Shown here one piece after another: positions 9,506 through 26,101 of a stretch of DNA of 64,000 nt. The stretch covers positions 1,188 to 65,187 of the forward strand of contig CAMDAO010000003.1 in assembly GCA_945888595.1 (NCBI GenBank), written 5' to 3'. This DNA comes from Chryseobacterium gleum (GTDB lineage: Bacteria > Bacteroidota > Bacteroidia > Flavobacteriales_D > Crocinitomicaceae). The notes beneath the pieces were generated by a model. That model was given only the letters and a program-made list of their open reading frames with translations. It was not told where the DNA came from and made no database searches. The position numbers and the translations under genes were made by a program. Position 1 is the first letter of the stretch. The number at the start of each line of letters is the position of its first letter.

Positions 9506-10350
9506 TGGATTATTTAGAATTAACGATATCAATTATGCCCCGAAATCCTTGGGCTGAAATCTTAACAGCTGAATTGGCGGACTTGGGGTTTGAAAGTTTT
9601 GTAGATACGGAAGATGGAATTCAAGCATATGGATTATTGAAAAATATTGAATTAGATACTGTTGTTAAAAATTCTATTCTTTCTTATGAAAATGAAGGTG
9701 TGCATTTTGAATTTACGCAAAAAGTAATACCGCATCAGAATTGGAATGCAGTATGGGAATCTGATTTTCATCCTGTTGAAGTGGAGAAGTATTTAACAAT
9801 TATTGCCCCTTTTCATTCAAAAGAAAATTTAAAAGGTATGATTGTTGAGATTCAGCCTCAAATGTCTTTTGGAACAGGTCATCATCAAACTACTTGGTTA
9901 ATGTCTAAAGCTTTGTTCGAATTAGACAGAATGCCTGAATCTGTGTTAGACATGGGTACAGGAACGGGTGTTTTAGCAATAATTGCTGAAAAATTAGGAG
10001 CGAAGGCTTTAGTTGGAATTGATATTGAAGATTGGACGGTTATTAATGCAAGAGAAAATATAGAAAGAAATGCATGTAAATCGATCGAAATTATGTGTGG
10101 TGATGTCGATTTAATTGAGGGTAGAAAATTTGGACTTATCATTGCTAATATTAATAAAAATGTATTAAAATCTCATATTGAATCATATAGCAGAGCCCTG
10201 GAATTTGGAGGAATACTTCTTCTGAGTGGTTTTTTTGATTCGGATGTTGATGAACTTATTACTTTTTCAAATGCGCACGATTTAAAAATGAATAAGATTT
10301 ATTCGAAAGAAAGTTGGGCGGGGATACAACTTATTAAAGAAGAAAATTAA
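9505..10350 (+). CDS. prmA: Ribosomal protein L11 methyltransferase
   Basis: FGTGHHQTT and the SAM-binding DMGTGTGVLAI motif. Start set at MDYLELT (TAATG overlap with the tpiA stop). The 38-codon upstream extension in the ORF track overlaps tpiA. Confidence 0.85.
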   Translation: MDYLELTISIMPRNPWAEILTAELADLGFESFVDTEDGIQAYGLLKNIELDTVVKNSILSYENEGVHFEFTQKVIPHQNWNAVWESDFHPVEVEKYLTIIAPFHSKENLKGMIVEIQPQMSFGTGHHQTTWLMSKALFELDRMPESVLDMGTGTGVLAIIAEKLGAKALVGIDIEDWTVINARENIERNACKSIEIMCGDVDLIEGRKFGLIIANINKNVLKSHIESYSRALEFGGILLLSGFFDSDVDELITFSNAHDLKMNKIYSKESWAGIQLIKEEN

Positions 10351-10366
10351 TTTAACACCAACAGCT

Positions 10367-13300
10367 ATGTTAAAAAAGATACTTTTAATTTTTGGGTTTA
10401 TTTTAACCAGTTATTTTTCTATTAGTCAGTCATATACTGAAGATAAAGGTGATTTCGTTAAGGCTTTTCACAAGGCGCTAAATGAATATGGTAAAGGAGA
10501 ATTCTCTGATTTTGCTAAAAAAGATTTACCTGCAATGCTTCTTGAGACAACGCAATTTCCCGCCAATTATTTTAAAAAAATGGTGGAGACATGCAATTTA
10601 ATGGAGTCTAAAAGAATGTCGCCTTACCCAGAAATTTATAACTATGTTTTTTCAGTGTATTCTTTTGTCAAAGGAAAGCAAAGTTCTGCTAGTTATGATA
10701 TTTGGCATGCTGCTGTAGATAAAATGCTGGCATCTAAAAGCAATCAGAAATTTGAGGAATTTGTCGGCTTCTCATCTTTGTTCTTTTCAAAACAGATAAT
10801 AAGTGATAATGCAAACTTTGATTGGTATTATGTAGGTGGTACATTTTCTTTTGAATATACTGATAAACCCTTATTTAAGTGTGTCAATGGAACGCTAGCT
10901 TGCCGTGTCATTAACAATGACCAGGAAACAATGAAAAAATTTAAATTTGTGGATAGTTTGGTGATTTCAAATACTTCTGGTAGCTATGATCCGATGGCAA
11001 AAAAATGGATTGGGAGCGGTGGATCATTAGATTGGGAAAAAGTAGGGCTTTCTAAAAAACAAACATCAGCGATTCTGACTAAATATGAAATTTCAACTAG
11101 GGTTTCAAATTTTTCATGTGATTCGGTTACTCTCACAACTCCGTATTTTACGAAACCAATCAAAGGTAGGATAGCCGATCGTGCTTTTAAAATAAATAGA
11201 GAAGAGGATAAAATATACCCTCAATTTACGTCATACGAAAGAAGACTTTCTATCAAAAAAATAAAAGCGGATATTGATTACGAGGGTGGTTTCTCTCTTC
11301 AAGGAGCTAATTTTGTGGGTGTTGGATATCCAAAGGAACCAGCGAAAATGATTGTCAATAGGGGAGGAAAGGCCTTTTTAACCGCTACGTCGCAAGAATT
11401 TATCATCAGTCGAGTAGCAATACATGGCTTTAATACGGCCATTAAATTGATGCTGAACGATAATCATGATTCAATTATTCATCCTGGTCTCGATTTTAAA
11501 TACATAATGGAGAAAAAGATGGTCGAAATGGCTAGAACAAAGTCGGGTAATGGTCAAGCTCCTTTTCATAATACGTATCACAAGGTGGATATGTATATGC
11601 CAAAATTAGCTTGGCAGACGGAATCCACAGACCTAGTAATCACCTACGAAATTGGTACGAGTCAAGAGCAAAAAATTGCCACTTTTGAATCTGAGAATTT
11701 CTTCGATGGACGTTTATTTGATAAACTACAAGGTATGGAACCAATTCATCCCTTGGTGGCAATTTCAAATTACTGTTATAAAAATGACGAATATATTTTA
11801 TCAGATGGTAAAGTCGCTACCGCTTTAAGTAAGACGCTTGAACAGGTAAAACCCTTGTTATTAGAACTTGCTAATTATGGTTTTATCACCTACGATACAG
11901 ATTCTAAAATGATTACCATCAATAGTAAACTGACCAATTTTGTGCAAGCTAAATCAGGTAAAAAAGATTTTGATAATTTAATTTTCATATGTGATTTACG
12001 TCCGAAAGAATTAACGGAAACGCCCGAACAAATTGCGAAAGATGAAAATCTGCGCTTTGTGCAACTTGAATACAAAAAAAATAATGAGGTGAGGCGGAAT
12101 ATGCCCGAATTTGGAAAACTAAGTTTAAGTTCACTGGAACTAAATATCAAAGCGATCGACTTCATTAATATTTCTAGTGCTCAAAATACTTTTGTTGTTC
12201 CGACCGACAAAGAAGTTATTTTGAAAAAAGACAGAAACTTTGATTTTATCGGATGGATAAGTGCTGGGAAAATGGAATTAAATGTCTTGGCTTCTTCATT
12301 TAATTATAAGGAATTTAAATTTACGATTCAAAAAACACATAAATCACTGTTTAGAGTTAAACCTCTGAGACCGGAAGATGGTAATAGGCCTATTGCTATG
12401 ATGAGCAGTTTGAATGGAATTACCGGAGAGTTGTTTATTGACAATCCGACCAATCGATCTGGAATTAATCCTAAAATTACAGATTATCCGCAGTTAAAAG
12501 TTTCAAAACCTTCTTATGTATATTATAATTCTCTTGCAATTTACAATGGGACCTATGATAGTAGCCGATTTTACTATACGGTAGATCCATTTTTTATTGA
12601 TAGTTTGGATAACTTTGAAGAGAAATCATTTCGAGTGATTGGAGAATTTACTTCTGCCGGAATTTTCCCAAAATTTAGAGAAAACTTAACGATTATGCCT
12701 GATTATTCTTTCGGGTTTTCAGCGAAAGCACCAGCGGGTGGGCATGATTTTTATGGAACAAGTTCTAAATATGAAAATAAAATCATTTTATCGAATAATG
12801 GTTTAGAAGGAGCAGGAACAATTAATTATGTGCATTCAAGTTCTGTTTCTAAAGGTTTTACATTTTTTCCAGATTCAACAATCGGTCTAGCTGTTTTTAC
12901 AAATAAACCTATAGAAGTTGGTGTTCAATTTCCGGACGTTACGTGCGAAAATGCCAACATTACGTACGTCCCAAAAAAGAATTTATTGAAAGCTGCTTCG
13001 ACAAATAAATTTGATTTATTATTTTTCAATAAAGAAGCGAAACTGAGGGGTACTGCCATCGTAAGAGCAGAAGGAATGAGAGGTTTTGGTTTAATGAATG
13101 TCAAAAATGCAACCATGCTATCGGATGATTATGAATTTAAAAGATGGGATATTGATGCAGATACAACAGGCTTTACTTTAAAAAATCAATATTTAGTAGA
13201 AGGCGAGGAACCAATTGCGTTAAAGACAGATAATGTTCAAGGACATGTGTCATTTTTAGATAGAAAAGGGGAATTTAAGTCAAATAACGGGGAGGCTCGA

Positions 13301-14986
13301 CTCGACTTTCCAATTAATCAATATTTCTGTACCATGGATAAATTCACCTGGTTTATGGATTTAGAATCGATTGAAGTTGAAGCGAAAGGAGGCGAAGATG
13401 CAGTGGCAAACGCAGATCTAGATTTACTTGGACCTAACTTTTTCTCCGCTCACCCGGATCAAGATTCTTTGCAATTTAGGGCTCCAAAAGCGGCGTTCAA
13501 CTTAAAAGAAAAAGCAATTTATTGTTCTAAGGTGTTTTATTTAGATGTTGCTGATGCACGTATTTATCCAGATAGTGCGAAAGTTGTTATACGGAAAAAA
13601 GCAAAAATGGATCCTTTCCTAGATGCGAAAGTTGTTGCCAATTATATAACTAAATATCATAAGTTCTTGCACTGTGAAATTCAAGTGTCTGCGCGAAGAA
13701 AATATGCGGGAAAAGGAGTCTATCCTTATTATGATAAAGATAGTTTGAAAACGGACTTTATAATGAATAGAATATTTCTCGATTCAACGGGGCAAACAGT
13801 TGCAGAAGGGAAAATTGGAAAGGATGCCAATTTCTATTTGAGCAAGCAATTTGATTATTATGGGGATGTTTCCGTAATTGCTTCTTTACCTACTATTATT
13901 TTTAAAGGTTCTACAAGAATGAATCATAATTGTGCCAAATTCCCGCGATCTTGGATTGCTTTGAGTGCTAATATTGATCCAGCAAATATTCAAATACCAA
14001 TAGATGCGGGGATGAAAAACATTGAAGGGAAAAGTGTAATGGCTGGTTTAGCTTGGAGAGATTCAAAAGTTTTAGATAGTATTCGCTTGTATCCAGCATT
14101 TCTGTCTCCTTTGCAAAATGATCTAGACCCAGTGGTCATGAAAGCTACGGGTTTACTTCAATACAATGTGGATGCGAAAGAATTTCAAATTGGTTCAGTG
14201 GATAAATTACTTAATAGAGGCGAGAAAGGAAATTTTATTTCTTTGCACACGGAATCTTGCATAATGGATGGTAATGGTATGATTAATTTGGGAATGAATT
14301 ATGGTGATGTAAATGTAAATTCTGTTGGTATTGTCAATTATGACCCTAAAAAAGGAGAAACTACGATGAATCTTACCGCTAAATTTAATATGCCAATGGA
14401 TAAAGGTTTGATGCAAGATTTAGCAGTAAAAATGGCAGCTGTTGAGGATTTAAAACCATTGGATTTTAATTCAAGTACTCTGGAGCAAGCTGTTTTAGAA
14501 TGGTCGGGTAGGGAAGAAGCAGATAAGATGAAAGCGGACTATACAATTAATGGAGAGCTTAAATATCCTAAGGGGCTGGAGTCTGCGTTAACAATTACAG
14601 GATTAAAAATTAAATCATTCGATATTAAAACAATGCAAGAAAGAGGATTTATTACAACTTCAGAAACGGCTTCCATTGTCTGTATGTATGGTAAACCTGT
14701 ATTTAAAACGGTTCCGTTTAAAGCATTCTTTTTACAATCCTACTCATTGTCTGAAACAGCAGGTGATAAATTCGGACTGCAGATTAATATTCCTACGTTG
14801 GATTACTATTTTGATTATTCAATGGAAGCGAAAGATGGAACGATGCGAATTATTTCAGGTGATCCTGATTTTGTGACAGCAGTGAATGCAATAAAAGAAG
14901 AGAAGAGAAAGATTAAGAATTTTAAATACGCAATAGAGACAGGAAGTATTTATTTAAGTAAGTTTTTACGTTATTTTGGACTTTAA
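10367..14986 (+). CDS. Very large (1539 aa) secreted protein of unknown function
   Basis: Uninterrupted 4.6-kb ORF with signal peptide MLKKILLIFGFILTSYFSISQ. No family motif recognised by eye. The stop overlaps the plsY start. Confidence 0.8.
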   Translation: MLKKILLIFGFILTSYFSISQSYTEDKGDFVKAFHKALNEYGKGEFSDFAKKDLPAMLLETTQFPANYFKKMVETCNLMESKRMSPYPEIYNYVFSVYSFVKGKQSSASYDIWHAAVDKMLASKSNQKFEEFVGFSSLFFSKQIISDNANFDWYYVGGTFSFEYTDKPLFKCVNGTLACRVINNDQETMKKFKFVDSLVISNTSGSYDPMAKKWIGSGGSLDWEKVGLSKKQTSAILTKYEISTRVSNFSCDSVTLTTPYFTKPIKGRIADRAFKINREEDKIYPQFTSYERRLSIKKIKADIDYEGGFSLQGANFVGVGYPKEPAKMIVNRGGKAFLTATSQEFIISRVAIHGFNTAIKLMLNDNHDSIIHPGLDFKYIMEKKMVEMARTKSGNGQAPFHNTYHKVDMYMPKLAWQTESTDLVITYEIGTSQEQKIATFESENFFDGRLFDKLQGMEPIHPLVAISNYCYKNDEYILSDGKVATALSKTLEQVKPLLLELANYGFITYDTDSKMITINSKLTNFVQAKSGKKDFDNLIFICDLRPKELTETPEQIAKDENLRFVQLEYKKNNEVRRNMPEFGKLSLSSLELNIKAIDFINISSAQNTFVVPTDKEVILKKDRNFDFIGWISAGKMELNVLASSFNYKEFKFTIQKTHKSLFRVKPLRPEDGNRPIAMMSSLNGITGELFIDNPTNRSGINPKITDYPQLKVSKPSYVYYNSLAIYNGTYDSSRFYYTVDPFFIDSLDNFEEKSFRVIGEFTSAGIFPKFRENLTIMPDYSFGFSAKAPAGGHDFYGTSSKYENKIILSNNGLEGAGTINYVHSSSVSKGFTFFPDSTIGLAVFTNKPIEVGVQFPDVTCENANITYVPKKNLLKAASTNKFDLLFFNKEAKLRGTAIVRAEGMRGFGLMNVKNATMLSDDYEFKRWDIDADTTGFTLKNQYLVEGEEPIALKTDNVQGHVSFLDRKGEFKSNNGEARLDFPINQYFCTMDKFTWFMDLESIEVEAKGGEDAVANADLDLLGPNFFSAHPDQDSLQFRAPKAAFNLKEKAIYCSKVFYLDVADARIYPDSAKVVIRKKAKMDPFLDAKVVANYITKYHKFLHCEIQVSARRKYAGKGVYPYYDKDSLKTDFIMNRIFLDSTGQTVAEGKIGKDANFYLSKQFDYYGDVSVIASLPTIIFKGSTRMNHNCAKFPRSWIALSANIDPANIQIPIDAGMKNIEGKSVMAGLAWRDSKVLDSIRLYPAFLSPLQNDLDPVVMKATGLLQYNVDAKEFQIGSVDKLLNRGEKGNFISLHTESCIMDGNGMINLGMNYGDVNVNSVGIVNYDPKKGETTMNLTAKFNMPMDKGLMQDLAVKMAAVEDLKPLDFNSSTLEQAVLEWSGREEADKMKADYTINGELKYPKGLESALTITGLKIKSFDIKTMQERGFITTSETASIVCMYGKPVFKTVPFKAFFLQSYSLSETAGDKFGLQINIPTLDYYFDYSMEAKDGTMRIISGDPDFVTAVNAIKEEKRKIKNFKYAIETGSIYLSKFLRYFGL

Positions 14987-15641: not shown

Positions 15642-18600
15642 ATGATTTTAAAATCTATATATCTGCTGGTATTAGTTGTTTTTTCAACTACGTTTTCTTT
15701 CTCACAAGAAACGATTGAAGAAGTGAAATCAACTGCTGATAAACTGTTTGAAGATGAGAAATATTTGGAGGCAACTCCCTATTATTTAAGACTTCTAGCC
15801 ATTGAACCAAGAAATCATAATTATAATTTTCGATATGGAACATGCTTGCTGTACAATACGAGCAAAGGGCAGGATGTTTTCAAATATTTGAATTATGCAG
15901 TTACAAATGAGGCTGTTGAAGTTGAAGCATACTACTTTTTGGCGAAGGCATTTCATTTGAATTATCAATTCAATGATGCTATCAAATATTACAAAATATA
16001 TCAAACCAAGGCGGCCGAGAATGCAAAGCAAGTATTGGACGTAAAGCGTCAAATTGAAATGTGTGAAAATGGTAAACGATTAATTACCACTATCACAGAA
16101 ATGGTTGTCATCGATAAAAAGGAAATTGAAGTTGAAAAATTTTTTCGAATCTATGATTTAAGTAATATTGGGGGTAATTTATTGGTTACTGCAGAATTTC
16201 AAACGAAAATTGATGAGAAAAAAGCACATATTCCTTTGATTCATTTCCCGGAAAATCCAACTGTTATTTATTATTCAAGTTATGGTGATAATGGAAAAAC
16301 GGGCAAAGATATTTATGTCAGGAGAAGATTGCCAACTGGAGGTTGGGGCGTTCCTCAGGCAATACAAGGGGGGGTTAATACAAATTTTGATGAGGATTAT
16401 CCATATATGCATCCAGATGGTAATTATTTGTATTTCAGTTCAAAAGGGCATAATTCTATGGGTGGATTTGATGTTTTTCGGTGTAAGTACGATGCGGAAA
16501 CAGATGTTTTTGGGATGGCTGAAAATATAGATTATGCCGTTTCCTCGCCAGATGACGATTTATTTTATGTCGTTGATTCTTTAAATAAAAATGCCTACTT
16601 CGCTTCAGGACGTCAAAGTGAGGAAGGGAAATTATTTGTATATAAAGTAAGGGTTGACCGTGTGCCATTAAACATGTCTGTTGTCAAAGGTCAATTTTCT
16701 TCTACGATTAATGCAGCACAAAAGAATGTGTTTGTCGATGTAAAAGATTACGCCACAGGTGAGTTTATTGGTAATTTCAATTCAAATGACAAAGGAGTGT
16801 ACCTTATTACATTTCCAAAAGGTGGAAAATATGAGTTTACTATAAAGGTCGGGGATAGTCCTCAGGAATATAAATATATAGCTTCCATTCCCTTTTTGAA
16901 AGAATTTAAACCTTTAAAACAAAAGATTATTCATGCCATGGATGGTGATCGTGAAAATGTGAAAGTCATTGATTTATTTGATGAACAAATGGAAGATCCG
17001 CAAGCAGTTTTTGCTCAGGTTTTAAAATTAAAAGCAGTTTTAGCTCCTAATATCAGTCAGGAAGAAATAGCGTTATTGGATAAAGATTTAAAGTCGAAGC
17101 AAGTCTTGGAAGAGCTTGGGATTGGGAAATTGTCGCTTGTTGAGGTAGGATATTTATTAGATGAAGAAGTGAAAGATGCTGAAAAAGCACAAGGCGGAAC
17201 AGCAGAAATTGAAAACAAAGTAAATACGCAGATAATAGGCAATAGTAAAGAGATAAATCGCTTGGATTTAGTGATTAAAAGTAAATTGGATAAAGCGAAT
17301 GTTGCTGATAGTGATAAGAAAAAATATAAACTACTGAAGGAAGCTGATAGAGCTTTAAAGTTACAAGAAGATCTGAAATTATTAAATGAAGTTAGTCTGA
17401 AATATGCAGATTCGATCTCAAAAATTCCTGTTACTGGTTCAGAGGCTAAAACAGCTGAAGTAAAAAAGTTTGCGCAGCATTTTAATGAACTTCTAAAGGA
17501 TAATAAACAAAAAGAAGCATACGCCTATTTATATGACAACAAAATAGCTATTAAGAATATTATAGAGGTGAAGGCACCTGATCCGCTGCAAGATATGATT
17601 GATCGTGGACTAATTTTAGATAATGAAATCAATCGTTTGCAGCCTAAGGATGATCAATATGCTCGCGACATTAAAAAAATAGAACTAGACATAGCAACAC
17701 TTGAGCAATCAAAAGTTACGGCGAAAAACAAGGATTTATCTGATATTCAAGCAGCTATAAAGTCCAAAATGAATGAAAAAAACATGATTACCGAAGAAAG
17801 AAATTTCAATGGTGTTGGTTTAAATGACAAAATAACGGAAAGAAGTTCTTTAAGAAAACGAATCGATATTTTGGCAGAAATTTATGATATCAAAGCAGAT
17901 AAAATAATTTCTAAAGAGGAACTTACGAGTGCTCTAGCTTCTTCTAAAGCGACTAATTCAGCTGCGATTAGAAAAGAACTTGGCGAAGAAATTACTTCTT
18001 TACTTTTAAAAAGTCCTGATATTAAAGAAATTGATTATTCAGAAATGGAAGGCGAATTAGGTTCCGTGGTTACAAAATCTAGAACTCAGTCAGACAAAAT
18101 AAAAACAGATCCAAGTTTAACTGCAGAACAAAAGGCTACAAAATTAAATGCCGTTAACGCAGAACTTTTAACAACGATCAATAAGGAAGTGAGCATTGCT
18201 AAAAGAGCGGTTGAAAAAAATCCAACGGATCCCAATTTGAAAGCAAAATTAGATGCTTTGCAATTCTCAAAATCATTGGTTGCTGCATCACTTGATATTC
18301 CTTCGGATGAAGTGGATGCGGAAGTTGTGACTTCAACTGTATCAAATGGTTCCTCGACAAACCCAACTTCGACATCTGTCGCTGTAAATTCTGAAAAACC
18401 AACAAATGGCACCACAAGTTCTGAAGGAAGCTTGAAGCCACCTATCGTAACAGATTCTCCAAAAACAGAAGTCACTAAAAACACAGAAGTATCTGCAACA
18501 GTGCCTTCAACAGAAAGTAAGTCTGGATCAACATCTGCCGCAACTGTTCCAAAAGTAAGTGCAAAAGGAGGAGAAGTCGCGAGTTCACAATCTGCTTCAA

Positions 18601-21600
18601 CCACGAAATCATCTGCCTCTGATGTAAATAAAAACAATGAAGATCTGAAAGCGTCACAAGCAGAAACCAATTCGGCGTCTCGCGAAAATGAAACTGCCAA
18701 AGCAACAAATTCAAGTCCATTGACAGTAAAAGAAAAGGAATTACTAGTAGAGACTGTAAATCCATCGTATAATGAGAAAGTCGAAAAAATAAGCTCGAAT
18801 TTATCACTATCTGCTGTTGAAAAATTAAAACAATTACAGGATGCGGATAATGAATTATTATCTGGAATAGAAGTGTCTATTAGTAAAACTGAATCTGAAC
18901 TAAAGAAAGCACCTTCAGATAGTGCTTTAAAAGACAAATTGACTGATTTTAAAGCTGTTCAATCCGACTTAACTGCCGCTATTTCCAAACGAGAAAAAGA
19001 AATAGGAACGAATGGTATTTCAAACTCTACAAATCCAATCTCAGCAAAAGAAAAAGAAACACTGGTTGAATCTGTAAACTCTTCATATAACGAACAAGTT
19101 ACGGTAATTAATACGAGTGGATCACTGTCAGAAACGGATAAATTAAATCAACTGCAGGCATTAGATAAGGGATTATTAACAGCTGTGACAAGTCAATTAA
19201 CAAATACAGAATTGGCAGTGAAAAATAGTCCTACGGATCCCGTTTTAGCTAAAAAAGCAGCAGATTTAAAAACAGTACAATCGGATCTTAAATCTGCAAT
19301 TTCAGCTCGTGATCGCGTTATTTCAACGGTAGGTCAACCGTATACTCAAAAAGCAAAAACGGAGATAATTGATGGCTTATCACCCATGTATATTGTTAAA
19401 GTGGCTGATATTAATAAAAATACAACTATTTCAGAACCTGAAAAATTAGCACAATTACAAAAAGCGGACAAAGAATTACTTATTTCTGTGAATAAGGAGA
19501 TTTCTGCACTTGAAAATAATGTTAAAAATAATGCAGATCCACAATTAATAAAGGAATTAGGGGATTATAAATCTTTGAAAAACGAATTGGAATCTGCCAT
19601 TTCAACAAGAGAAAACACCATTGTAGCTGCAACTGGTCAGCCTGGGAAAGGTGAGGAACTAACATCTCAAAATAGAGTTCAGAACACGACCGGTACTTCA
19701 ACAGAACCTGCTAATACTAGTGCTAATAAAGCGCCAGTTAAGAATGATGAAAAAATCAATACTGTAACACAGAATGATCCAGCAGTGAATCAGAAAGAAA
19801 GTAATTTAACATCTCAAAATTCAGTTAAGCAAACGACAAGTACTTCAGCAGAATCGCCTAATAATACTAGTAATAAAGCGCCAATTAAAAATGATGAAAA
19901 ATCAAATTTAATTGAATCTGTTAATTCCAGTTATAATGAAGAAGTAGCGAAGGTAAATGCAAATAATTCACTCACTAGTAATGAAAAATTAAATCAAATT
20001 CAATTATTAGATCGCTCTTTAATTGAGTCTATTACCAAAGAATTAAAAACGACGTCAGATACTAAAAAGAAAGAAAATTTAGCCTCTTTAAAAAAGGAAT
20101 TGGAAGGAAATATTACAGCGCGAGAATTGGTAATTGCTGCTAATTTTAAACCAGTCGACAAAGCTGTGAAGGCAAATGTAATTAAGTCAATTGATTCCAA
20201 ATACGATAAAAAAGTAGAAGCAATTAATACGAATGCGGACTTATCTATTTCAGAAAAACTTACGCAATTACATGAATTAGACTTTGAAGTTATTTCAAAG
20301 ATTAAGCAAGAAATATCAGAAGTTACGGCAGATTTGGCTAAAAAACCCACGGATGCACTTTTAATAAAAAAGATAGAAGATTTGAAAGCTGTTCAAGCTG
20401 ATTTGGAGCATGAATTAGCCAATCGAGAATCTGTAATTGCTGCTACTACTACTATTGTTGATGAGAAAGCAAAGGCCGAGTTAATTGAATCAGTCAGTTC
20501 TCAATACAATGAAAAAGTTCAAGTATTAAAAAATAATGAATATTTGTTGGATTCTGAAAAACAAGCAGAATATCAAAAAATAGATCAACAGCTTCTTCAG
20601 TCCATTGAAAAGGAAATTGTTTCTCTGGAAGGAGAGATGACTTCGAACCCTTCAAATTCTCAATCAAAAAGAAAACTGGAAGGGTTGAAAATAGTAAAAT
20701 CCGACTTGCAGAAATCAATATCGGTTAGAGAAAAGAGTTTAGCTCCTGAGTCAGCATTAAGTAATCCACTTGCTGCAAACGCGGGGCTAATTGAAACGAT
20801 TAGTAAAGGATATACTGAGAAATTAACGCTTATTAATGAAGATGCTTTTATTTCTCACACCGATAAACTTATTCAATTTGAAAAATTAGACAAAGAACTC
20901 CAATTAGTATTAAACAAAGAAGTTACTAAAAGTATTTCTGCCGCTAAAAAGAAACCGAATGATCCAGAGCTACAAAAAAGGAAAAATGATTTAATAGCCC
21001 TCAAAAAGATTCTAGATGAGGTAGTTAATGAAGCGCCGCAACAGATTTTAAATTCGCTCGCCGCTTCTGTTACGGATCAGCAAAAAAACACGTTGATTTC
21101 AGATGTGAAACCAGGGCATGAAGGCAAAACACAAGGAATCAAGAATTCTTCAAAAGAGCCAATTAAAATTATTGAAGAATTAATTATTGAGGAGAAAGCT
21201 TTAATTTCTAAACTAGAAGCGGAAGAAAAAATAAATCAAGTTAATCTAAAGAAAGAGCCAAAGAACGAGGATTTAAAAAGAAAGTCTACTGTTATTACAG
21301 TTGCAATAGAGGAAAGCGAACTTAGAATCAGCGCGTTAAATAGTGGTGCTGTTACTTTAACGATAAGTGATATTAATCAAAAAGCACTCGTATCCAAAGT
21401 TGACCCAACTTTTGAATCGGATGTGAAAACACTTTTTGAATCTAACTCTCCTACGAAATCAAATGATTTAGCAAGTAGAGAAGATAAATTACAGGAAAAA
21501 ATTCTAAGTCAAATATCCGCAAATAATGAAGAAATCGCTAACAATTATACAGTAGAATTAGCGGCTGAAAATCAGATTTTAAATCAAAAATTGATTGAAA

Positions 21601-24314
21601 GTAAAGCAAGAAAAGAAAAATACAAAACGGGAGGAACAGATGTGTCTGTAAATAAGTCAGGTTCTGTTGCTACTGAAAAAGTGAATGAAGTAAGAAATGA
21701 TCTTTTGGTTGACGATGCTGCGGAAGTAAGTAAGAATTATACTAAAATTGATGAATTACACGCTCAAGAAGAGATTTTAACAGGGTACAAAGATACATTA
21801 AAATCGCGCTTGGACAAAGTGAATCAATCGTTGCTCATTGAAAAAAATGAGCCAACCTTAGTAGAACAAAAAGAATCTTATACATCAGAATTGACCATCG
21901 TTGATTCTAAATTGAAACAAGTTACAAAAGCAATCTCAAGTATTGAAGAGTCAGCTCCTGTAGTGATGAATCCTGAATTGAAAAAACTAATAGATCATGA
22001 AGGAGAGATTAAAGAACAATTGGCAAAAACAGATTTATCTAAAAAAGAGCGCGCCTCGTTCGAAAAGGAATTGATCAAAGTCCAAAAAGAAAAGAGTGTA
22101 GTTGAAAATAAACTAATTACAGAAAATATTACTACGCGTAAAGTTGATAATCAAGCTCAGAGTGCCCAGTTAACAAATCTAGCAGCAACATCAGATGCGG
22201 CGAAATTAAATGCTGATTTAGCAACTTCTCAAAATAAGCGTCTGACGGCAGAAACAGACGTCTTAATTGCTCAAGCTGAAAAAACAAAAGATCCCTTAGA
22301 AAAAAATAAATTATTGAATCAAGCAATTGTTAAACAAGTAAAAGCAGATAATGCTGTTCAGAATGCGCTGAAAGAAAATGCAACCTTACTTGCTATAAAA
22401 TCAAAAGTTGAAACATTAGATTCGAAGGAACAATTAGAACAAAAGAAAGTTGGCTTAGAGCAAGAACTAACTGATTTAACAGCAGAAGAGAATCAATTGA
22501 ACGTAGATATTTCAGCAGTTAAACCCGCTAAAGCTGCCGACTTGCAAAAAAAGAAAGAGGGGTTAGTCTATGAAAAAACGTTAATCACAAAAGAACTAGA
22601 ATTGGTTACGAAACAGATTGACAACACCGTTCCAGTCCCAACAACTATTAGTTCAACTGCTATAGAACAGATTATTTCAACAAATGAAGAAAAAAGCCTA
22701 ATTGCCTCTAAAGAATATTTAGAATATGCTATAAATGCAAAAGCGGCTATTCGAGTTGAGGGAGAAATTAAGGAATCTGAGGCAACGTTGACAGAAAAAA
22801 GACAAATTGCAAAGGACTTAATAGGTAAGTCATTAGATAAAAAGAATGCTGTTTTACCTACCGATATTGCTCAAGCCGTAGAAAATGTCAAAATAGTTGA
22901 AGATGAAATCTCTACGTTGAAACAAGAATTGGCTGAAAAACAAAAAAATGCAAGTACTGTGTTTGGGGGTATCCCTGATAAAAAGGGCAAACTGGAAAAT
23001 CTTTTGAAAAGGGAAATCGAACCTAGCTACAATAAAGATTTAGCGGAAGCAGAGGCGAAAAGAATGGAAGCAGAAGGGTTGACGATCGAAGCTAAAAAGG
23101 CAGAAGGTATTGAGATTGTTCCTGTTTTGACACCAATTAATATTTATTCCTCCACAAATCCAATTCCAGTGGATGTAAAGAATGGTTCAGGTCTGCTTTA
23201 TAGAATTCAGGTGGGAGCATTTTCTAAACCGATCGCACAAGATATGTACAAATCATTTACTCCAGTGTCTGGGGAAAAACTGAGTAGCGGAGTGACACGA
23301 TATATGGCGGGTTATTTTAATAAAAATGTAATTGCAGAAGAAGCACATACACAAGTGAAAGCGTTAGGCTATATGGATGCATTTATTGTAGCGTATTGCG
23401 ATGATAAACGAATTCCGCTCGCTGAAGCAAAAAGTTTAGAAGCATCAGGCGAATGTATTTCAACAAAAAGTGAGTTATTTGTGATTGCGACTTCTAAAAT
23501 GCCTTCGGCTACCTCCATGTCTAAAGAACCGAATACAACTGATTTGAGCTATAATATTGCACCGGGAGCAGCAAAAGCAACGCCTGTTGAATCTCATTTA
23601 GGTTTATTCTACACAGTTCAAGTTGGTGTATATAACAAGCCAGCAACTGCTAAACAATTAAAAAACATAGATCCTTTGGTTACAAAACGTTTACCGAATG
23701 GTCAGATTCGATATTCATCAGGGATGTTTAATTCGATTGAAGCCGCAAAACCTAAAAAAGCCGATGCTAGGGCAAAAGGTGTGAAAGATGCATTTATTAG
23801 CGCTTATTATAAAGGAGAAAGAATAACCTTATCGCAAGCAAGTCTTTTACTGAAAAAGAATGGAGAAGGAATTTTGGAGAAACTCGACAACGAATTGGTT
23901 TCTTCAGTTCAGCCAGCTGAAAAAATATCTACCGTTATTCCTACTGAAAACAGTAAGGCAACAACTAATTACAATGTGGGACCAGGAGCTGTTAAAGCAA
24001 CAGCGGTGGAGACAAAGTTAGGCTTATTCTTTACGGTTCAAATTGGTGTATATAGCAAACCAGCTACTAAAAAACAGTTGAATAATGTAACAGATTTAAT
24101 CACGAAGAAATTGCCAAATGGGCAACTACGTTATTCATGTGGTATGTATACCTCAATTGAAGCGGCTGAACCTAAACGTCAGGAGGCATTATCAAAAGGT
24201 GTGAATCATGCTTATATTACGGCGTATTATCAGGGTGAACGAATTACCATTTCTGAAGCAAAAGAATTGCTGCGTATCAATGGCGATTCAATTTTAGAAA
24301 AAATAGAAAAATAA
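15642..24314 (+). CDS. Giant (2890 aa) envelope protein: signal peptide, TPR, TolB-like PD40 repeats, CarboxypepD_reg-like domain, ~2000-aa repetitive coiled coil, three C-terminal SPOR domains
   Basis: Single uninterrupted 8.7-kb ORF with signal peptide MILKSIYLLVLVVFSTTFSFSQ and TPR-like AYYFLAKAFHLNYQFNDAIKYYKIY. PD40-like DGNYLYFSSKGHNSMGGFDVF and AYFASGRQSEEGKLFVYKV. An E/K/L/Q-rich middle region. SPOR-like YRIQVGAFSKP, FYTVQVGVYNKPATAKQL and FFTVQIGVYSKPATKKQL. Confidence 0.85.
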   Translation: MILKSIYLLVLVVFSTTFSFSQETIEEVKSTADKLFEDEKYLEATPYYLRLLAIEPRNHNYNFRYGTCLLYNTSKGQDVFKYLNYAVTNEAVEVEAYYFLAKAFHLNYQFNDAIKYYKIYQTKAAENAKQVLDVKRQIEMCENGKRLITTITEMVVIDKKEIEVEKFFRIYDLSNIGGNLLVTAEFQTKIDEKKAHIPLIHFPENPTVIYYSSYGDNGKTGKDIYVRRRLPTGGWGVPQAIQGGVNTNFDEDYPYMHPDGNYLYFSSKGHNSMGGFDVFRCKYDAETDVFGMAENIDYAVSSPDDDLFYVVDSLNKNAYFASGRQSEEGKLFVYKVRVDRVPLNMSVVKGQFSSTINAAQKNVFVDVKDYATGEFIGNFNSNDKGVYLITFPKGGKYEFTIKVGDSPQEYKYIASIPFLKEFKPLKQKIIHAMDGDRENVKVIDLFDEQMEDPQAVFAQVLKLKAVLAPNISQEEIALLDKDLKSKQVLEELGIGKLSLVEVGYLLDEEVKDAEKAQGGTAEIENKVNTQIIGNSKEINRLDLVIKSKLDKANVADSDKKKYKLLKEADRALKLQEDLKLLNEVSLKYADSISKIPVTGSEAKTAEVKKFAQHFNELLKDNKQKEAYAYLYDNKIAIKNIIEVKAPDPLQDMIDRGLILDNEINRLQPKDDQYARDIKKIELDIATLEQSKVTAKNKDLSDIQAAIKSKMNEKNMITEERNFNGVGLNDKITERSSLRKRIDILAEIYDIKADKIISKEELTSALASSKATNSAAIRKELGEEITSLLLKSPDIKEIDYSEMEGELGSVVTKSRTQSDKIKTDPSLTAEQKATKLNAVNAELLTTINKEVSIAKRAVEKNPTDPNLKAKLDALQFSKSLVAASLDIPSDEVDAEVVTSTVSNGSSTNPTSTSVAVNSEKPTNGTTSSEGSLKPPIVTDSPKTEVTKNTEVSATVPSTESKSGSTSAATVPKVSAKGGEVASSQSASTTKSSASDVNKNNEDLKASQAETNSASRENETAKATNSSPLTVKEKELLVETVNPSYNEKVEKISSNLSLSAVEKLKQLQDADNELLSGIEVSISKTESELKKAPSDSALKDKLTDFKAVQSDLTAAISKREKEIGTNGISNSTNPISAKEKETLVESVNSSYNEQVTVINTSGSLSETDKLNQLQALDKGLLTAVTSQLTNTELAVKNSPTDPVLAKKAADLKTVQSDLKSAISARDRVISTVGQPYTQKAKTEIIDGLSPMYIVKVADINKNTTISEPEKLAQLQKADKELLISVNKEISALENNVKNNADPQLIKELGDYKSLKNELESAISTRENTIVAATGQPGKGEELTSQNRVQNTTGTSTEPANTSANKAPVKNDEKINTVTQNDPAVNQKESNLTSQNSVKQTTSTSAESPNNTSNKAPIKNDEKSNLIESVNSSYNEEVAKVNANNSLTSNEKLNQIQLLDRSLIESITKELKTTSDTKKKENLASLKKELEGNITARELVIAANFKPVDKAVKANVIKSIDSKYDKKVEAINTNADLSISEKLTQLHELDFEVISKIKQEISEVTADLAKKPTDALLIKKIEDLKAVQADLEHELANRESVIAATTTIVDEKAKAELIESVSSQYNEKVQVLKNNEYLLDSEKQAEYQKIDQQLLQSIEKEIVSLEGEMTSNPSNSQSKRKLEGLKIVKSDLQKSISVREKSLAPESALSNPLAANAGLIETISKGYTEKLTLINEDAFISHTDKLIQFEKLDKELQLVLNKEVTKSISAAKKKPNDPELQKRKNDLIALKKILDEVVNEAPQQILNSLAASVTDQQKNTLISDVKPGHEGKTQGIKNSSKEPIKIIEELIIEEKALISKLEAEEKINQVNLKKEPKNEDLKRKSTVITVAIEESELRISALNSGAVTLTISDINQKALVSKVDPTFESDVKTLFESNSPTKSNDLASREDKLQEKILSQISANNEEIANNYTVELAAENQILNQKLIESKARKEKYKTGGTDVSVNKSGSVATEKVNEVRNDLLVDDAAEVSKNYTKIDELHAQEEILTGYKDTLKSRLDKVNQSLLIEKNEPTLVEQKESYTSELTIVDSKLKQVTKAISSIEESAPVVMNPELKKLIDHEGEIKEQLAKTDLSKKERASFEKELIKVQKEKSVVENKLITENITTRKVDNQAQSAQLTNLAATSDAAKLNADLATSQNKRLTAETDVLIAQAEKTKDPLEKNKLLNQAIVKQVKADNAVQNALKENATLLAIKSKVETLDSKEQLEQKKVGLEQELTDLTAEENQLNVDISAVKPAKAADLQKKKEGLVYEKTLITKELELVTKQIDNTVPVPTTISSTAIEQIISTNEEKSLIASKEYLEYAINAKAAIRVEGEIKESEATLTEKRQIAKDLIGKSLDKKNAVLPTDIAQAVENVKIVEDEISTLKQELAEKQKNASTVFGGIPDKKGKLENLLKREIEPSYNKDLAEAEAKRMEAEGLTIEAKKAEGIEIVPVLTPINIYSSTNPIPVDVKNGSGLLYRIQVGAFSKPIAQDMYKSFTPVSGEKLSSGVTRYMAGYFNKNVIAEEAHTQVKALGYMDAFIVAYCDDKRIPLAEAKSLEASGECISTKSELFVIATSKMPSATSMSKEPNTTDLSYNIAPGAAKATPVESHLGLFYTVQVGVYNKPATAKQLKNIDPLVTKRLPNGQIRYSSGMFNSIEAAKPKKADARAKGVKDAFISAYYKGERITLSQASLLLKKNGEGILEKLDNELVSSVQPAEKISTVIPTENSKATTNYNVGPGAVKATAVETKLGLFFTVQIGVYSKPATKKQLNNVTDLITKKLPNGQLRYSCGMYTSIEAAEPKRQEALSKGVNHAYITAYYQGERITISEAKELLRINGDSILEKIEK
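18093..21630 (+). repeat. About 10 divergent ~100-aa (about 300-nt) tandem protein modules inside the giant ORF
   Basis: Recurring pattern K.K..LIESVN.SYNEKV..IN....LS..EKL.QLQ.LD..LL..I..E.......KK.P.D..L..K..DLK.VQ.DL...IS.RE..I. Units start near 18093, 18712, 19034, 19341, 19908, 20156, 20461, 20765, 21072 and 21361. Confidence 0.75.
23194..24311 (+). other. Three SPOR (peptidoglycan-binding) domains at the C-terminus of the giant ORF
   Basis: Approximate domains at 23194-23445, 23603-23880 and 24023-24311. The last two, with their ~25-aa leaders (NIAPGAAKATPVESHLG / NVGPGAVKATAVETKLG), are an obvious duplication. Confidence 0.7.
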
Positions 24315-24367: not shown

Positions 24368-24640
24368 ATGCAAAAGACAGAATATTATTCAGAGGAGTTA
24401 GTTTTAGATGAGTTAGTAGATCAGAAGGATTTAATCGTATTTAACGACGATGTAAACTCTTTTGATCATGTTATTGCATCTTTAATAAAGATTTGCAAGC
24501 ATACAGACGTTCAAGCAGAGCAATGCACAATGATCATTCATTATAACGGAAAATGTCAGGTTAAACGAGGAGAATACGAAAAGTTAGAACCTATGTGTAC
24601 CGCACTTTTAGAAAAGGGAATAACCGCAGAAATTCAATAA
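24368..24640 (+). CDS. clpS: ATP-dependent Clp protease adaptor ClpS
   Basis: 90 aa. FNDDVNSFDHVI...QAEQCTMIIHYNGKCQVKRGEYEKLEP is the canonical ClpS core. Confidence 0.85.
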   Translation: MQKTEYYSEELVLDELVDQKDLIVFNDDVNSFDHVIASLIKICKHTDVQAEQCTMIIHYNGKCQVKRGEYEKLEPMCTALLEKGITAEIQ

Positions 24641-24676
24641 ATTTGAGAGAAAAGTTGTCATTTAGAAAAAACTGAC

Positions 24677-24684
24677 TATCTTTG
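24677..24684 (+). promoter_or_regulatory. Bacteroidota -7 box (TATCTTTG) for tRNA-Arg
   Basis: TAnnTTTG match 12 nt upstream of the tRNA 5' end. Confidence 0.5.
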
Positions 24685-24696
24685 TTCACACAAAAT

Positions 24697-24770
24697 GGCT
24701 TTGTAGCTCAACTGAATAGAGCACTACATTACGGCTGTAGAGGTTTTAGGTTTGAATCCTAACAAGGTCA
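24697..24770 (+). tRNA. tRNA-Arg (anticodon ACG)
   Basis: Hand-folded cloverleaf: acceptor GGCTTTG/CAAGGTC (two G-U pairs), anticodon stem CTACA/TGTAG with loop TTACGGC, T arm TTAGG-TTTGAAT-CCTAA. CCA is not encoded. Confidence 0.85.
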
Positions 24771-24781
24771 CAATTAAGAAA

Positions 24782-24816
24782 GTTAGATAGTTGTATATCA
24801 ATTATCTAGCTTTTTT
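24782..24816 (+). terminator. Rho-independent terminator after tRNA-Arg(ACG)
   Basis: Stem TAGATAGTTG / CAATTATCTA (one G-U), loop TATAT, followed by TTTTTT. Confidence 0.6.
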
Positions 24817-25263
24817 GTTTCCCCACATATTCCCCACAACTAATTAAACGCATAAAAAAACGCCCAACTGTTAAGATGAACGTTAATATTAAATGAATTA
24901 ATTGTGGCGTCATAATTTTATTTTAACACCTATACCTTGTGCATTCATTATAAAACCAGCTCTACCGATATTAATATTACTTTCTATCATAAATATAGTA
25001 ACAATTAATGCTATCGCACCTCCACTATACATGTACAAGTTTTTTTCAAAATCCGTTTGAACAACAAAACTTCATGAAGAAGCTGCTATTCCAGAACCTA
25101 AAATAATTAATCCATTAGTGTAATGTTTTGAAGCTAATTGCAATTCATCGCCTGCTGAATTTAATTGCCATTGTGGTACATTAAGATTTGAACTTAAGTT
25201 ATAAAATTAATTGTAAAATTTAATCTGACCCCCCTATCTCATTAAACAAATAGTTCAAAAAGT

Positions 25264-25297
25264 CAAAAAGCCCTGCAAATTTGATACTTGCAGAGCT
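25264..25297 (-). terminator. Rho-independent terminator ending the minus-strand tRNA run
   Basis: On the minus strand: GCTCTGCAA-loop-TTGCAGGGC followed by TTTTT, about 30 nt downstream of tRNA-Asp. Confidence 0.6.
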
Positions 25298-25327
25298 TTT
25301 CTGATTCCCGCAGCCATACGAGACTTG

Positions 25328-25401
25328 CGGTCCGGACGGGACTCGAACCCGCGACCTCCGCCGTGACAGGGCGGCATTCTAACCAACTGAACTACCGAAC
25401 C
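25328..25401 (-). tRNA. tRNA-Asp (anticodon GTC)
   Basis: Reverse complement GGTTCGGTAGTTCAGTTGGTTAGAATGCCGCCCTGTCACGGCGGAGGTCGCGGGTTCGAGTCCCGTCCGGACCG. Anticodon loop CTGTCAC. Confidence 0.9.
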
Positions 25402-25603
25402 AATATTTTGTAAGTCAAAAATTGACTTTTCGAAAACAATCGAACTTTTCGTGTCATCTTTAGATGACTTAAAAAGTGAAATACTGTGTATGCTTTACGT
25501 TTAAAGCGCTGCAAAGGTAAGCATTAATTATTGATTTACAAGCTACTTTTGTAAAAATAATATTTAAAAAAGTGAAAGCTTCATTAACCGATACTTACAT
25601 TAG

Positions 25604-25677
25604 TGATCCCGTTTGGATTCGAACCAAAGACCTGCTCATTAGAAGTGAGCTGCTCTATCCAGCTGAGCTACGGAACC
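25604..25677 (-). tRNA. tRNA-Arg (anticodon TCT)
   Basis: Reverse complement GGTTCCGTAGCTCAGCTGGATAGAGCAGCTCACTTCTAATGAGCAGGTCTTTGGTTCGAATCCAAACGGGATCA. Anticodon stem GCTCA/TGAGC, loop CTTCTAA. Confidence 0.9.
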
Positions 25678-25701
25678 TGTTATGATGTCAATTTTAAAAT
25701 G

Positions 25702-25726
25702 AAAAAGGGAATGATTTCTCATTCCC
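25702..25726 (-). terminator. Hairpin plus T-run between tRNA-Pro and tRNA-Arg(TCT)
   Basis: Perfect 8-bp stem GGGAATGA/TCATTCCC with a 4-nt loop, followed on the minus strand by TTTTT. Confidence 0.5.
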
Positions 25727-25730
25727 TCAG

Positions 25731-25805
25731 TCGGGGTGGCAGGATTCGAACCTGCGACCTCCTGGTCCCAAACCAGGCGCGATAACCGAGCTACGCTACA
25801 CCCCG
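25731..25805 (-). tRNA. tRNA-Pro (anticodon TGG)
   Basis: Reverse complement CGGGGTGTAGCGTAGCTCGGTTATCGCGCCTGGTTTGGGACCAGGAGGTCGCAGGTTCGAATCCTGCCACCCCGA. Anticodon stem CCTGG/CCAGG, loop TTTGGGA. Confidence 0.9.
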
Positions 25806-25866
25806 AATTTAATTTCGGTTTTCATTTCAATTACTTTTCTCTAAGACGTTTCTTAGAAAACGAGTG

Positions 25867-25874
25867 CAAAGATA
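25867..25874 (-). promoter_or_regulatory. Bacteroidota -7 box (TATCTTTG, minus strand) upstream of tRNA-Pro
   Basis: The minus strand reads GGTATCTTTGCACTCG. The same TTTGCACT context occurs upstream of tRNA-Ser. Confidence 0.4.
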
Positions 25875-25912
25875 CCTTTTTTTTCTTAGTATACAAGCAT
25901 TTTTGAAAATAA

Positions 25913-26002
25913 TGGCGGAGAGAGCGGGATTCGAACCCGCGGTACAGTTACCCGTACGTCAGTTTAGCAAACTGGTGGTTTCAGCCACTCACCCATCCCT
26001 CC
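25913..26002 (-). tRNA. tRNA-Ser (anticodon GCT), long variable arm, CCA encoded
   Basis: Reverse complement GGAGGGATGGGTGAGTGGCTGAAACCACCAGTTTGCTAAACTGACGTACGGGTAACTGTACCGCGGGTTCGAATCCCGCTCTCTCCGCCA. Anticodon loop TTGCTAA. It is the only one of the five tRNAs with a genomic CCA. Confidence 0.85.
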
Positions 26003-26025
26003 GGACGTCTTAAAAGAACGAAGTG

Positions 26026-26033
26026 CAAAAGTA
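26026..26033 (-). promoter_or_regulatory. Bacteroidota -7 box (TACTTTTG, minus strand) upstream of tRNA-Ser
   Basis: The minus strand reads TTACTTTTGCACTTCG, 23 nt upstream of the tRNA 5' end. Confidence 0.45.
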
Positions 26034-26101
26034 ATAAAAGCATCCGTTTTTCAACGCTTTTTTGTAATTAATATTAAAATAAAATAAAATTACAGCTAAC
26101 T

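Follow-up and report, generated by a model that had tools for sequence, protein, structure and literature searches.

What does a protein of 2890 amino acids (aa) do in a bacterial envelope when its head resembles that of OmpA-family proteins, its C-terminus carries SPOR-like domains, and about 2000 residues of helical stalk lie between the two? The question is raised by a single gene on contig CAMDAO010000003.1 (assembly GCA_945888595.1, labelled Chryseobacterium gleum and placed in Crocinitomicaceae), within a stretch of 64,000 nucleotides that was analyzed as a whole and is here called the window. We tentatively read the product, hereafter the giant, as a periplasmic, wall-anchored tether or scaffold, in which the head would rest on a partner in the envelope and the SPOR-like domains would provide the anchor at the far end of the stalk. 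The links between the outer membrane or surface machines of Bacteroidota and the cell wall are poorly understood; these bacteria have no Lpp and depend on proteins of the OmpA type, PorE among them. The author of an initial annotation of the window knew of no characterized protein with the layout of the giant, and none was found in the databases and literature searched here.

The gene itself is simply described.

15642 to 24314, forward strand: giant gene, a single open reading frame (ORF) that opens with the ATG at 15642 and closes with the stop codon ending at 24314, 2890 aa plus stop

No interruption was observed between these two points, and the giant is a genuine gene rather than an assembly artefact. 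An independent ENA assembly encodes a protein (P0001) of exactly 2890 aa that is 98% identical to it, and the next relatives share 88% identity at 2948 aa and 75% identity at 2865 aa. The closest genome record was a freshwater Flavobacteriales metagenome-assembled genome (MAG), in which the first 453 aa of the giant were matched at 96% identity. The GC content of the gene (0.32-0.38) was the same as that of its flanks, and Tandem Repeats Finder detected no DNA tandem repeats within it. The initial annotation had named collapsed or expanded repeats as one circumstance that might undo its reading. The protein does contain internal repeats, but these share only 30-47% identity and leave no trace as tandem repeats in the DNA; moreover, dozens of full-length family members (1979-3595 aa) occur in species-representative genomes, and one member is also carried by a record of ~4.55 Mb that is complete and is attributed to “Ca. 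Fluviicola riflensis.” With an independent copy of the same length, full-length relatives and no repeated DNA, an artefact or a non-functional ORF was rejected, its probability being practically nil.

The head of the giant was compared with that of a second, partial gene at the far end of the window.

15714 to 16091, forward strand: TPR domain, aa ~25-150, about three TPR units (AlphaFold2, Foldseek)
16098 to 16661, forward strand: PD40 (TolB-like) beta-propeller region in truncated form, with three blade motifs, aa ~153-340 (Pfam, NCBIfam, hhalign)
16677 to 16973, forward strand: CRD-like beta-sandwich, aa 346-444 (AlphaFold2, Foldseek, paralogue alignment)
62958 to 64000, reverse strand: partial OmpA-family paralogue (PorE/CHU_0125-like) with PD40 blades, CRD and OmpA, its N-terminus lying beyond the window (Pfam, NCBIfam)

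For the head, residues 1-1140 were modelled with AlphaFold2 (mean predicted local distance difference test score [pLDDT] 71); a mixed alignment served as input for structure prediction. The initial annotation had assigned TPR, PD40 and CarboxypepD_reg-like parts to this region, and these fared differently. Pfam matches to TPR were weak and all below threshold, but the model placed TPR-type helices at residues 25-150, for which Foldseek returned CHIP and consensus TPR domains (TM score 0.72-0.79, root mean square deviation [rmsd] ~2.8 over ~120 aa), so that the predicted structure confirms a TPR fold. The last TPR and the “MCENGK” motif also align to the paralogue family. PD40 was matched at residues 246-279 with 28.0 bits when a 450-aa fragment was scanned, above the Pfam cut-off of 20.9, a score that falls to 20.4 bits when the whole giant is scanned. 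Three blade motifs were recognized in the giant versus five in the paralogues, fewer than a closed propeller of at least five blades would contain; the beta region at 153-340 was modelled at low confidence, and no propeller was among the top Foldseek matches of the 1-1140 model. For the third part, Pfam gave no direct CarboxypepD_reg match in the giant. The region nevertheless aligned with the CarboxypepD_reg region of the paralogues, and the strands of the modelled sandwich were confident (pLDDT 83-88) and matched the CnaB2 sandwich 8bdw (TM score 0.64).

In the partial paralogue, Pfam identified OmpA (91.6 bits), PD40 (30.9 bits) and a weak CarboxypepD_reg (19.6 bits), and NCBIfam identified CHU_0125_OmpA (185.8 bits) and PorE (155 bits); its full-length relatives measure 582-606 aa. 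Its OmpA domain directly follows the CRD-like region, just as the initial annotation had described. Colinearity of the two heads, likewise claimed there, was borne out and its extent refined. BLASTP of the giant against the partial ORF gave 23% identity over 191 aa (E 1e-13), and against a full-length relative (P0217) two colinear high-scoring segment pairs (E 2e-23 and 2e-11). When profiles of 18 giant-family heads and of 12 paralogue-family proteins were compared (hhalign, probability 100%, E 1.5e-50), giant residues 74-448 aligned colinearly with paralogue columns 4-494 of 597, leaving a gap of ~120 aa in the giant that corresponds to two of the five PD40 blades. The match stops where “VIDLFDE” of the giant meets “LRNIFFD” of the paralogue, which is the first OmpA strand; no OmpA domain was found by Pfam or NCBIfam anywhere in the 2890 aa of the giant. 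By these comparisons, the giant head and the TPR-PD40-CRD head of the OmpA paralogues are homologous and colinear, and the breakpoint is the OmpA junction. The NCBIfam PorE model (NF052230) also matched the giant, with 62.8 bits (E 1.9e-17) against a 600-bit cut-off and over model positions 291-427 only, and by this measure the giant is not a PorE or CHU_0125 member.

Identity between the giant and the paralogues is only 23-26%, and the split between them is therefore old. A recent domain swap within this genome was considered and rejected on the basis of that identity together with the existence of a Bacteroidales protein that already joins this type of head to SPOR (see below). The exchange of one anchor for another suggested in the initial annotation is thus fair as a description of architecture, but it was not a recent event in this genome. 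As a separate observation, proteins of 555-584 aa (L037, L038 and L039) carry the TPR, five PD40 blades and the CRD-like sandwich with neither OmpA nor SPOR, and so represent this head module in a third form that has no anchor.

At the opposite end of the giant, three related domains lie in tandem.

23175 to 23477, forward strand: SPOR-like domain 1, aa 2512-2612, with the Cys pair C2586/C2605 in its C-terminal extension
23586 to 23897, forward strand: SPOR-like domain 2, aa 2649-2752 (Pfam SPOR 17.9 bits, E 0.004; AlphaFold2 pLDDT ~90)
24006 to 24311, forward strand: SPOR-like domain 3, aa 2789-2890 (self-BLAST), found only in the closest relatives

The initial annotation had called these SPOR domains outright. 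All fall below the Pfam cut-off in the giant, yet their SPOR-like character is upheld by family matches, by the CwlC profile match and by Foldseek. Among 38 homologous family domains, 14 matched Pfam SPOR with E values of 0.01 or lower, the best being 2.7e-6; for one short related protein, a PF05036 match is available in precomputed form. A profile of the family domains found the SPOR domain of CwlC (1x60) as its best PDB sequence (E 0.003). In an AlphaFold2 model of residues 2468-2890, the SPOR-like domains were predicted with pLDDT ~90, and the top Foldseek match was again CwlC SPOR 1x60 (TM score 0.66, rmsd 2.9, 74 columns, probability 1.0), with DedD 6ztg at rank 5. The SPOR fold (beta-alpha-beta-beta-alpha-beta, RNP-like, with a four-stranded sheet) was recovered for the giant domains by AlphaFold2 and Foldseek, each comprising a SPOR core with an extra C-terminal beta-hairpin and helix. 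Across the 38 domains, Gln15, Gly17 and Tyr46 were invariant and Arg45 nearly so, forming a Gln-x-Gly motif in strand 1 and an Arg-Tyr motif in strand 3. In a sequence alignment only, these conserved residues correspond to the “VQIGAF” strands of CwlC; in FtsN and DamX, conserved residues of the sheet surface, among them the strand 1 Gln, serve to bind glycans. The three C-terminal domains are thus, as far as sequence and model tell, divergent SPOR-like domains of an atypical, tandem kind.

Domain 3 is a duplicate of domain 2 (64% identity by self-BLAST). By hidden Markov model (HMM) counts, the 24 closest homologues have three SPOR-like copies and 93 other relatives have two copies plus an unrelated tail of ~170-200 aa, with one outlier (P0036) reaching seven. 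Two SPOR-like domains are ancestral, and the third is a lineage-specific duplicate. The unrelated C-terminal domain (“IQIVTKKxFDEFPxDVLNRYN...”, ~170-200 aa) that stands in place of the third SPOR-like domain in most members was seen in relatives P0025-P0120 (for example, at residues ~1960-2155 of P0106) and in L040 (8001-14468), and had no Pfam or NCBIfam match in these distant relatives.

Between head and anchor lies the stalk.

16998 to 18320, forward strand: conserved helical region I, aa 453-893, family-specific, including repeat copy 1 (AlphaFold2)
18060 to 18296, forward strand: helical repeat copy 1, aa 807-885 (HMM)
18321 to 18716, forward strand: Ser/Thr/Asn/Pro-rich linker 1, aa 894-1025 (composition, AlphaFold2)
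18729 to 19643, forward strand: helical repeats 2-4, aa 1030-1126, 1136-1233 and 1236-1334 (self-BLAST, HMM)
19644 to 19886, forward strand: Ser/Thr/Asn-rich linker 2, aa 1335-1415 (composition and sequence)
19893 to 21065, forward strand: helical repeats 5-8, aa 1418-1504, 1508-1604, 1608-1705 and 1712-1808 (HMM)
21072 to 23051, forward strand: conserved helical region II, aa 1811-2470, K/E-rich and poor in Pro and Gly (colinearity, heptad patches)

The initial annotation had predicted about 2000 aa of coiled coil here, a claim that was partly right. Residues 453-1123 were modelled as all-alpha, with helices of 10-55 aa separated by short loops (pLDDT ~80-90 over 453-893), and a crude heptad score based on a/d positions exceeded that of shuffled sequences, though only in patches (600-700, 2000-2100, 2200-2300 and 2400-2500). 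Against an uninterrupted rod, the helices are segmented, Ser/Thr-rich linkers intervene, and eight repeats occupy part of the length. Linker 1 was modelled with pLDDT 23-50 and no structure at 894-967 and is predicted to be disordered. The eight helical repeats of ~100 aa, spread over residues 807-1808, were delimited with an HMM built from self-matches (self-BLAST E down to 1e-24); copies 2-4 scored 112-121 bits and copies 5-8 scored 79-115 bits. In the model, which takes in copies 1 and 2, copy 2 consists of two short helices and two of ~30 aa, an arrangement that suggests hairpins or bundles strung together. Foldseek matches of the 1-1140 model to long helices were meaningless. Pfam had no match for helical regions I or II or the repeat array, and NCBIfam likewise had nothing on the stalk; the ~100-residue helical repeat is previously undescribed. 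Giant residues 1615-2746 were colinear with residues 809-1956 of P0106, a distant relative. The stalk is accordingly best described, to judge from the models, as segmented and helical, with novel repeats and flexible linkers, and not as a demonstrated continuous coiled coil.

Export of the giant is indicated by its N-terminus.

15642 to 15704, forward strand: signal peptide, aa 1-21, with a predicted signal peptidase I site between SFS and QE (from the translation)

The protein begins MILKSIYLLVLVVFSTTFSFS followed by QE and reads as having a cleavable signal peptide with Gln at +1; this residue, Gln22, is nearly invariant across the family. No lipobox Cys was seen on reading the signal peptide, the first Cys being residue 68, and no type IX secretion system (T9SS) C-terminal domain was detected in an NCBIfam scan. 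An invariant Cys pair, C2586/C2605 (window positions 23397-23456), is confined to the C-terminal extension of SPOR-like domain 1 and fits an oxidizing compartment. A second, nearly invariant pair, C68/C141, lies within the TPR region; its C141 is aligned to a Cys that is invariant among the OmpA paralogues (“EC.NGK”). The two pairs are probable disulfides. We infer that the giant is a Sec-exported, soluble protein of the periplasm.

The family to which the giant belongs is small, conserved, uncharacterized, and found in freshwater and marine Flavobacteriales. A whole-protein search gave 1685 matches at E<=1e-5, of which the best 120 were 2128-3604 aa long; none of these had an informative name, all being called “hypothetical protein” or bearing a spurious label. 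An exhaustive HMMER search with residues 400-800 against 1.84 billion cluster representatives returned 74 matches (60 at E<=1e-10), almost always at about residues 400-800 of the target; with clusters drawn at 50% identity (~60 in the giant family), this points to a family that is small and fixed in architecture. The A1 profile, run against a 5.8-billion-protein set, retrieved nothing beyond 31 short or fragmentary proteins whose names were uninformative. The genomes with matches were MAGs that carried the labels Crocinitomicaceae, Fluviicola, Brumimicrobium, Vicingaceae, Salibacteraceae or unclassified Flavobacteriales, and their ORFs measured 1979-3595 aa. In the literature, no paper was found that joins SPOR with Flavobacterium, and none of those retrieved that link SPOR to TPR or coiled coil in Bacteroides or Bacteroidetes concerns the protein described here. 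The survey of homologue length and repeat number that the initial annotation had proposed showed protein length to vary with repeat number, which is 1-14 among relatives.

A Bacteroidales MAG (OY762280.1; L035, ~9890-12150) encodes a much shorter homologue of 752 aa, adjoining clpS. Its head comprises TPR and PD40 (32.6% identity to giant residues 37-339) with no CRD-like sandwich. Behind it come a spacer of ~200 aa that is acidic and helical, one SPOR-like domain belonging to the same subtype (39% identity, 56 bits) and another that is degenerate. This suggests that the head-plus-SPOR layout is older than the giant stalk; it also implies that head and anchor can work with a spacer that is either short or long. 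Another apparent short version, of 771 aa in L015, was set aside as a sequence cut by a run of N and not a short variant.

Set beside known systems, the giant most closely recalls PorE in its head and SPOR proteins in its C-terminus. With PorE it shares the order of TPR, PD40 (WD40-like) propeller and CRD-like sandwich, the heads being homologous by sequence comparison, and both are exported envelope proteins of Bacteroidota with a terminal peptidoglycan-binding module, which in the giant would be SPOR-like. It differs in having three blades where the PorE type has five, in lacking the OmpA_C domain and the lipoprotein Cys, and in carrying ~2000 aa of helical stalk plus SPOR-like domains where PorE has OmpA. 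With FtsN, DamX, DedD and RlpA of Escherichia coli and CwlC of Bacillus subtilis it shares the SPOR-like fold and motif, their C-terminal position, and export. In contrast to these, the domains of the giant family are in tandem (2-3, and up to 7 in one relative), each has the extra beta-hairpin and helix, the first in the giant has a conserved Cys pair, and the giant is predicted to be soluble rather than a bitopic membrane protein, a lipoprotein or an amidase. For the stalk, analogies can be drawn with Ebh of Staphylococcus aureus, a rod-like, giant helical-repeat protein associated with the wall, and with EzrA, a spectrin-like repeat protein. These likewise have tandem, all-helical repeats of ~100 aa in an elongated, envelope-associated stalk of variable copy number, but no sequence or profile relationship to the giant was detected, and phylum, compartment and terminal domains all differ. 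Lpp and domain II of TolA also place a helical spacer between interactions on the outer-membrane side and on the wall or inner side; the spacer of the giant exceeds theirs in length by one to two orders of magnitude, is segmented and hinged, and varies greatly in length among relatives, and thus fits a flexible tether better than a ruler. A strict ruler, one of the functions floated in the initial annotation, is further weakened by the range of 1-14 repeats, by the Bacteroidales version with its short spacer and by an extended form that would reach far beyond the width of the periplasm.

How might such a molecule work? The head, with its TPR, three PD40 blades and CRD-like sandwich, shares a common ancestor with the heads of PorE/CHU_0125-type OmpA proteins and would most likely dock on a partner associated with the outer membrane, by analogy with PorE and PorP; a likely interaction of the PorE propeller with PorP, a protein of the outer membrane, has been reported (PMC12773672). 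The ~2000-aa stalk of all-alpha, segmented hairpins or bundles, with its array of ~100-aa repeats, which can be expanded, and with flexible hinges at two Ser/Thr-rich sites, would then span the distance to the SPOR-like domains, which may bind the glycan strands of the sacculus; SPOR domains are described as binding glycans free of stem peptides (Yahashiri 2015, as cited in PMC12772221). The whole would act as a long, flexible, wall-anchored tether or scaffold joining an envelope partner to the sacculus. It would probably run along the wall and not across the periplasm, since ~2000 helical residues, even when bundled, should exceed the width of the periplasm many times. Peptidoglycan binding, the partner of the head and the physiological role are all put forward here by inference from relatives and architecture, and several results weigh against the proposal. 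Pfam SPOR (PF05036) scored the first two domains of the giant at 12.6 and 17.9 bits with no match to the third copy, the gathering score being 21, and helix alpha1 of the canonical SPOR fold was poorly formed in the model. The three-blade propeller and its low-confidence model leave PorE-like partner binding uncertain, and the absence of a PorE-type lipid anchor leaves the location of the head open. The Bacteroidetes O-glycosylation motif, taken as a marker of compartment, was not enriched in the giant (5 sites versus 9.6 expected), the neighboring genes (tpiA, prmA, plsY and clpS) are housekeeping genes that give no functional clue, and the family as a whole is uncharacterized and unannotated.

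Much of the same evidence could be read as that of a division-site protein, recruited to denuded septal glycans by its SPOR-like domains in the manner of FtsN, DamX, DedD and RlpA, with stalk and head scaffolding or coordinating constriction of the outer membrane and remodelling of the septal wall. The SPOR-like C-terminus speaks for this, and the PD40/TolB-like head recalls Tol-Pal, a septal system. We nevertheless consider it rather unlikely: no division genes lie nearby, tandem SPOR-like domains with a family-specific extension might differ in specificity, localization is not addressed by the sequence and model data, and SPOR proteins are not all specific to division, as is evident from the best structural match, CwlC, a lytic amidase of the sporulation mother cell. 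A periplasmic filament or track in the plane of the sacculus, perhaps oligomeric through helical segments or half-propeller heads and serving shape, stiffness, or guidance of gliding or the T9SS, seems to us improbable. It would account for a stalk that should far exceed the width of the periplasm; the strong heptad patches could serve oligomerization, three-blade half-propellers could in principle pair, relatives of the head work with PorP-type T9SS proteins, and the family is confined to Crocinitomicaceae and relatives. However, self-association is without evidence, the modelled helices fold back on themselves in the AlphaFold2 monomer, no gliding or T9SS genes are adjacent, and neither a repeat number of 1-14 nor the ~200-aa spacer of the Bacteroidales homologue is what a conserved lattice geometry would lead one to expect.

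Placing the giant outside the periplasm altogether, as a surface or secreted protein of adhesin type, has a very slim chance of being right. Among Bacteroidota, giant proteins with repeats often serve as adhesins on the surface, and the linkers are Ser/Thr-rich; but the protein has no adhesin-type beta repeats, it ends in SPOR-like domains in place of a detectable T9SS C-terminal domain, and its head is homologous to heads of the periplasmic PorE type. We thus retain the wall-anchored tether or scaffold as the preferred, if tentative, reading. A bolder form of it would make the family a new class of periplasmic “strap,” in which the PorE-like head grips PorP/SprF-type complexes of the T9SS or gliding machinery and the tandem SPOR-like domains fix the sacculus end, so that surface machinery of Crocinitomicaceae, whether moving or distributed, would have a wall anchor that is long and elastic, or an element of a track. 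We give this a slim chance; we know of no periplasmic strap of such a kind in any bacterium.

Peptidoglycan-anchored envelope tethers are known as a kind. What is new here is the helical repeat of ~100 residues, together with a distinct subtype of SPOR that bears an extension at its C-terminus. The giant family would couple the same head module to a different wall-binding chemistry, SPOR-like and directed at glycans, and its spacer has been stretched in evolution from about 200 to >2500 residues. If it is indeed periplasmic, the giant would be among the largest periplasmic proteins known and would lend itself naturally to the question of what a tether that is anchored to the wall and measures at least 100 nm does in a compartment of ~25 nm.

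Around the giant, about 20-31 loci and a distant marine member share one fixed gene order: folP (opposite strand), a 178-aa ORF, a BT_3928-family gene, tpiA, prmA, a gene for a 1539-aa protein, plsY, the giant and clpS. This synteny indicates vertical inheritance in a housekeeping neighborhood rather than a functional operon. The 1539-aa protein (10367-14986, forward strand) is secreted, with a signal peptide ending in SIS before QS, and its gene lies immediately 5' of plsY and the giant in ~30 related loci, distant marine members included; it had no Pfam or NCBIfam match and is a possible functional partner of the giant. The 625-aa BT_3928-family protein (6882-8759, forward strand) scored 227 bits against a cut-off of 250, in four matched stretches. 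Its gene is kept 5' of tpiA and prmA in all related loci, and its equivalent in a distant locus gave weak MauE/DoxX matches. As listed, the prmA ORF (9391-10350, forward strand, TTG start at 9391) overlaps tpiA (8756-9505, forward strand) by 115 nucleotides; the true prmA start is probably downstream, since the NCBIfam match begins at residue 38. Just 3' of clpS, five tRNA genes (24697-24770 on the forward strand and 25328-26002 on the reverse strand) explain the ORF-poor stretch at 24640-26100.

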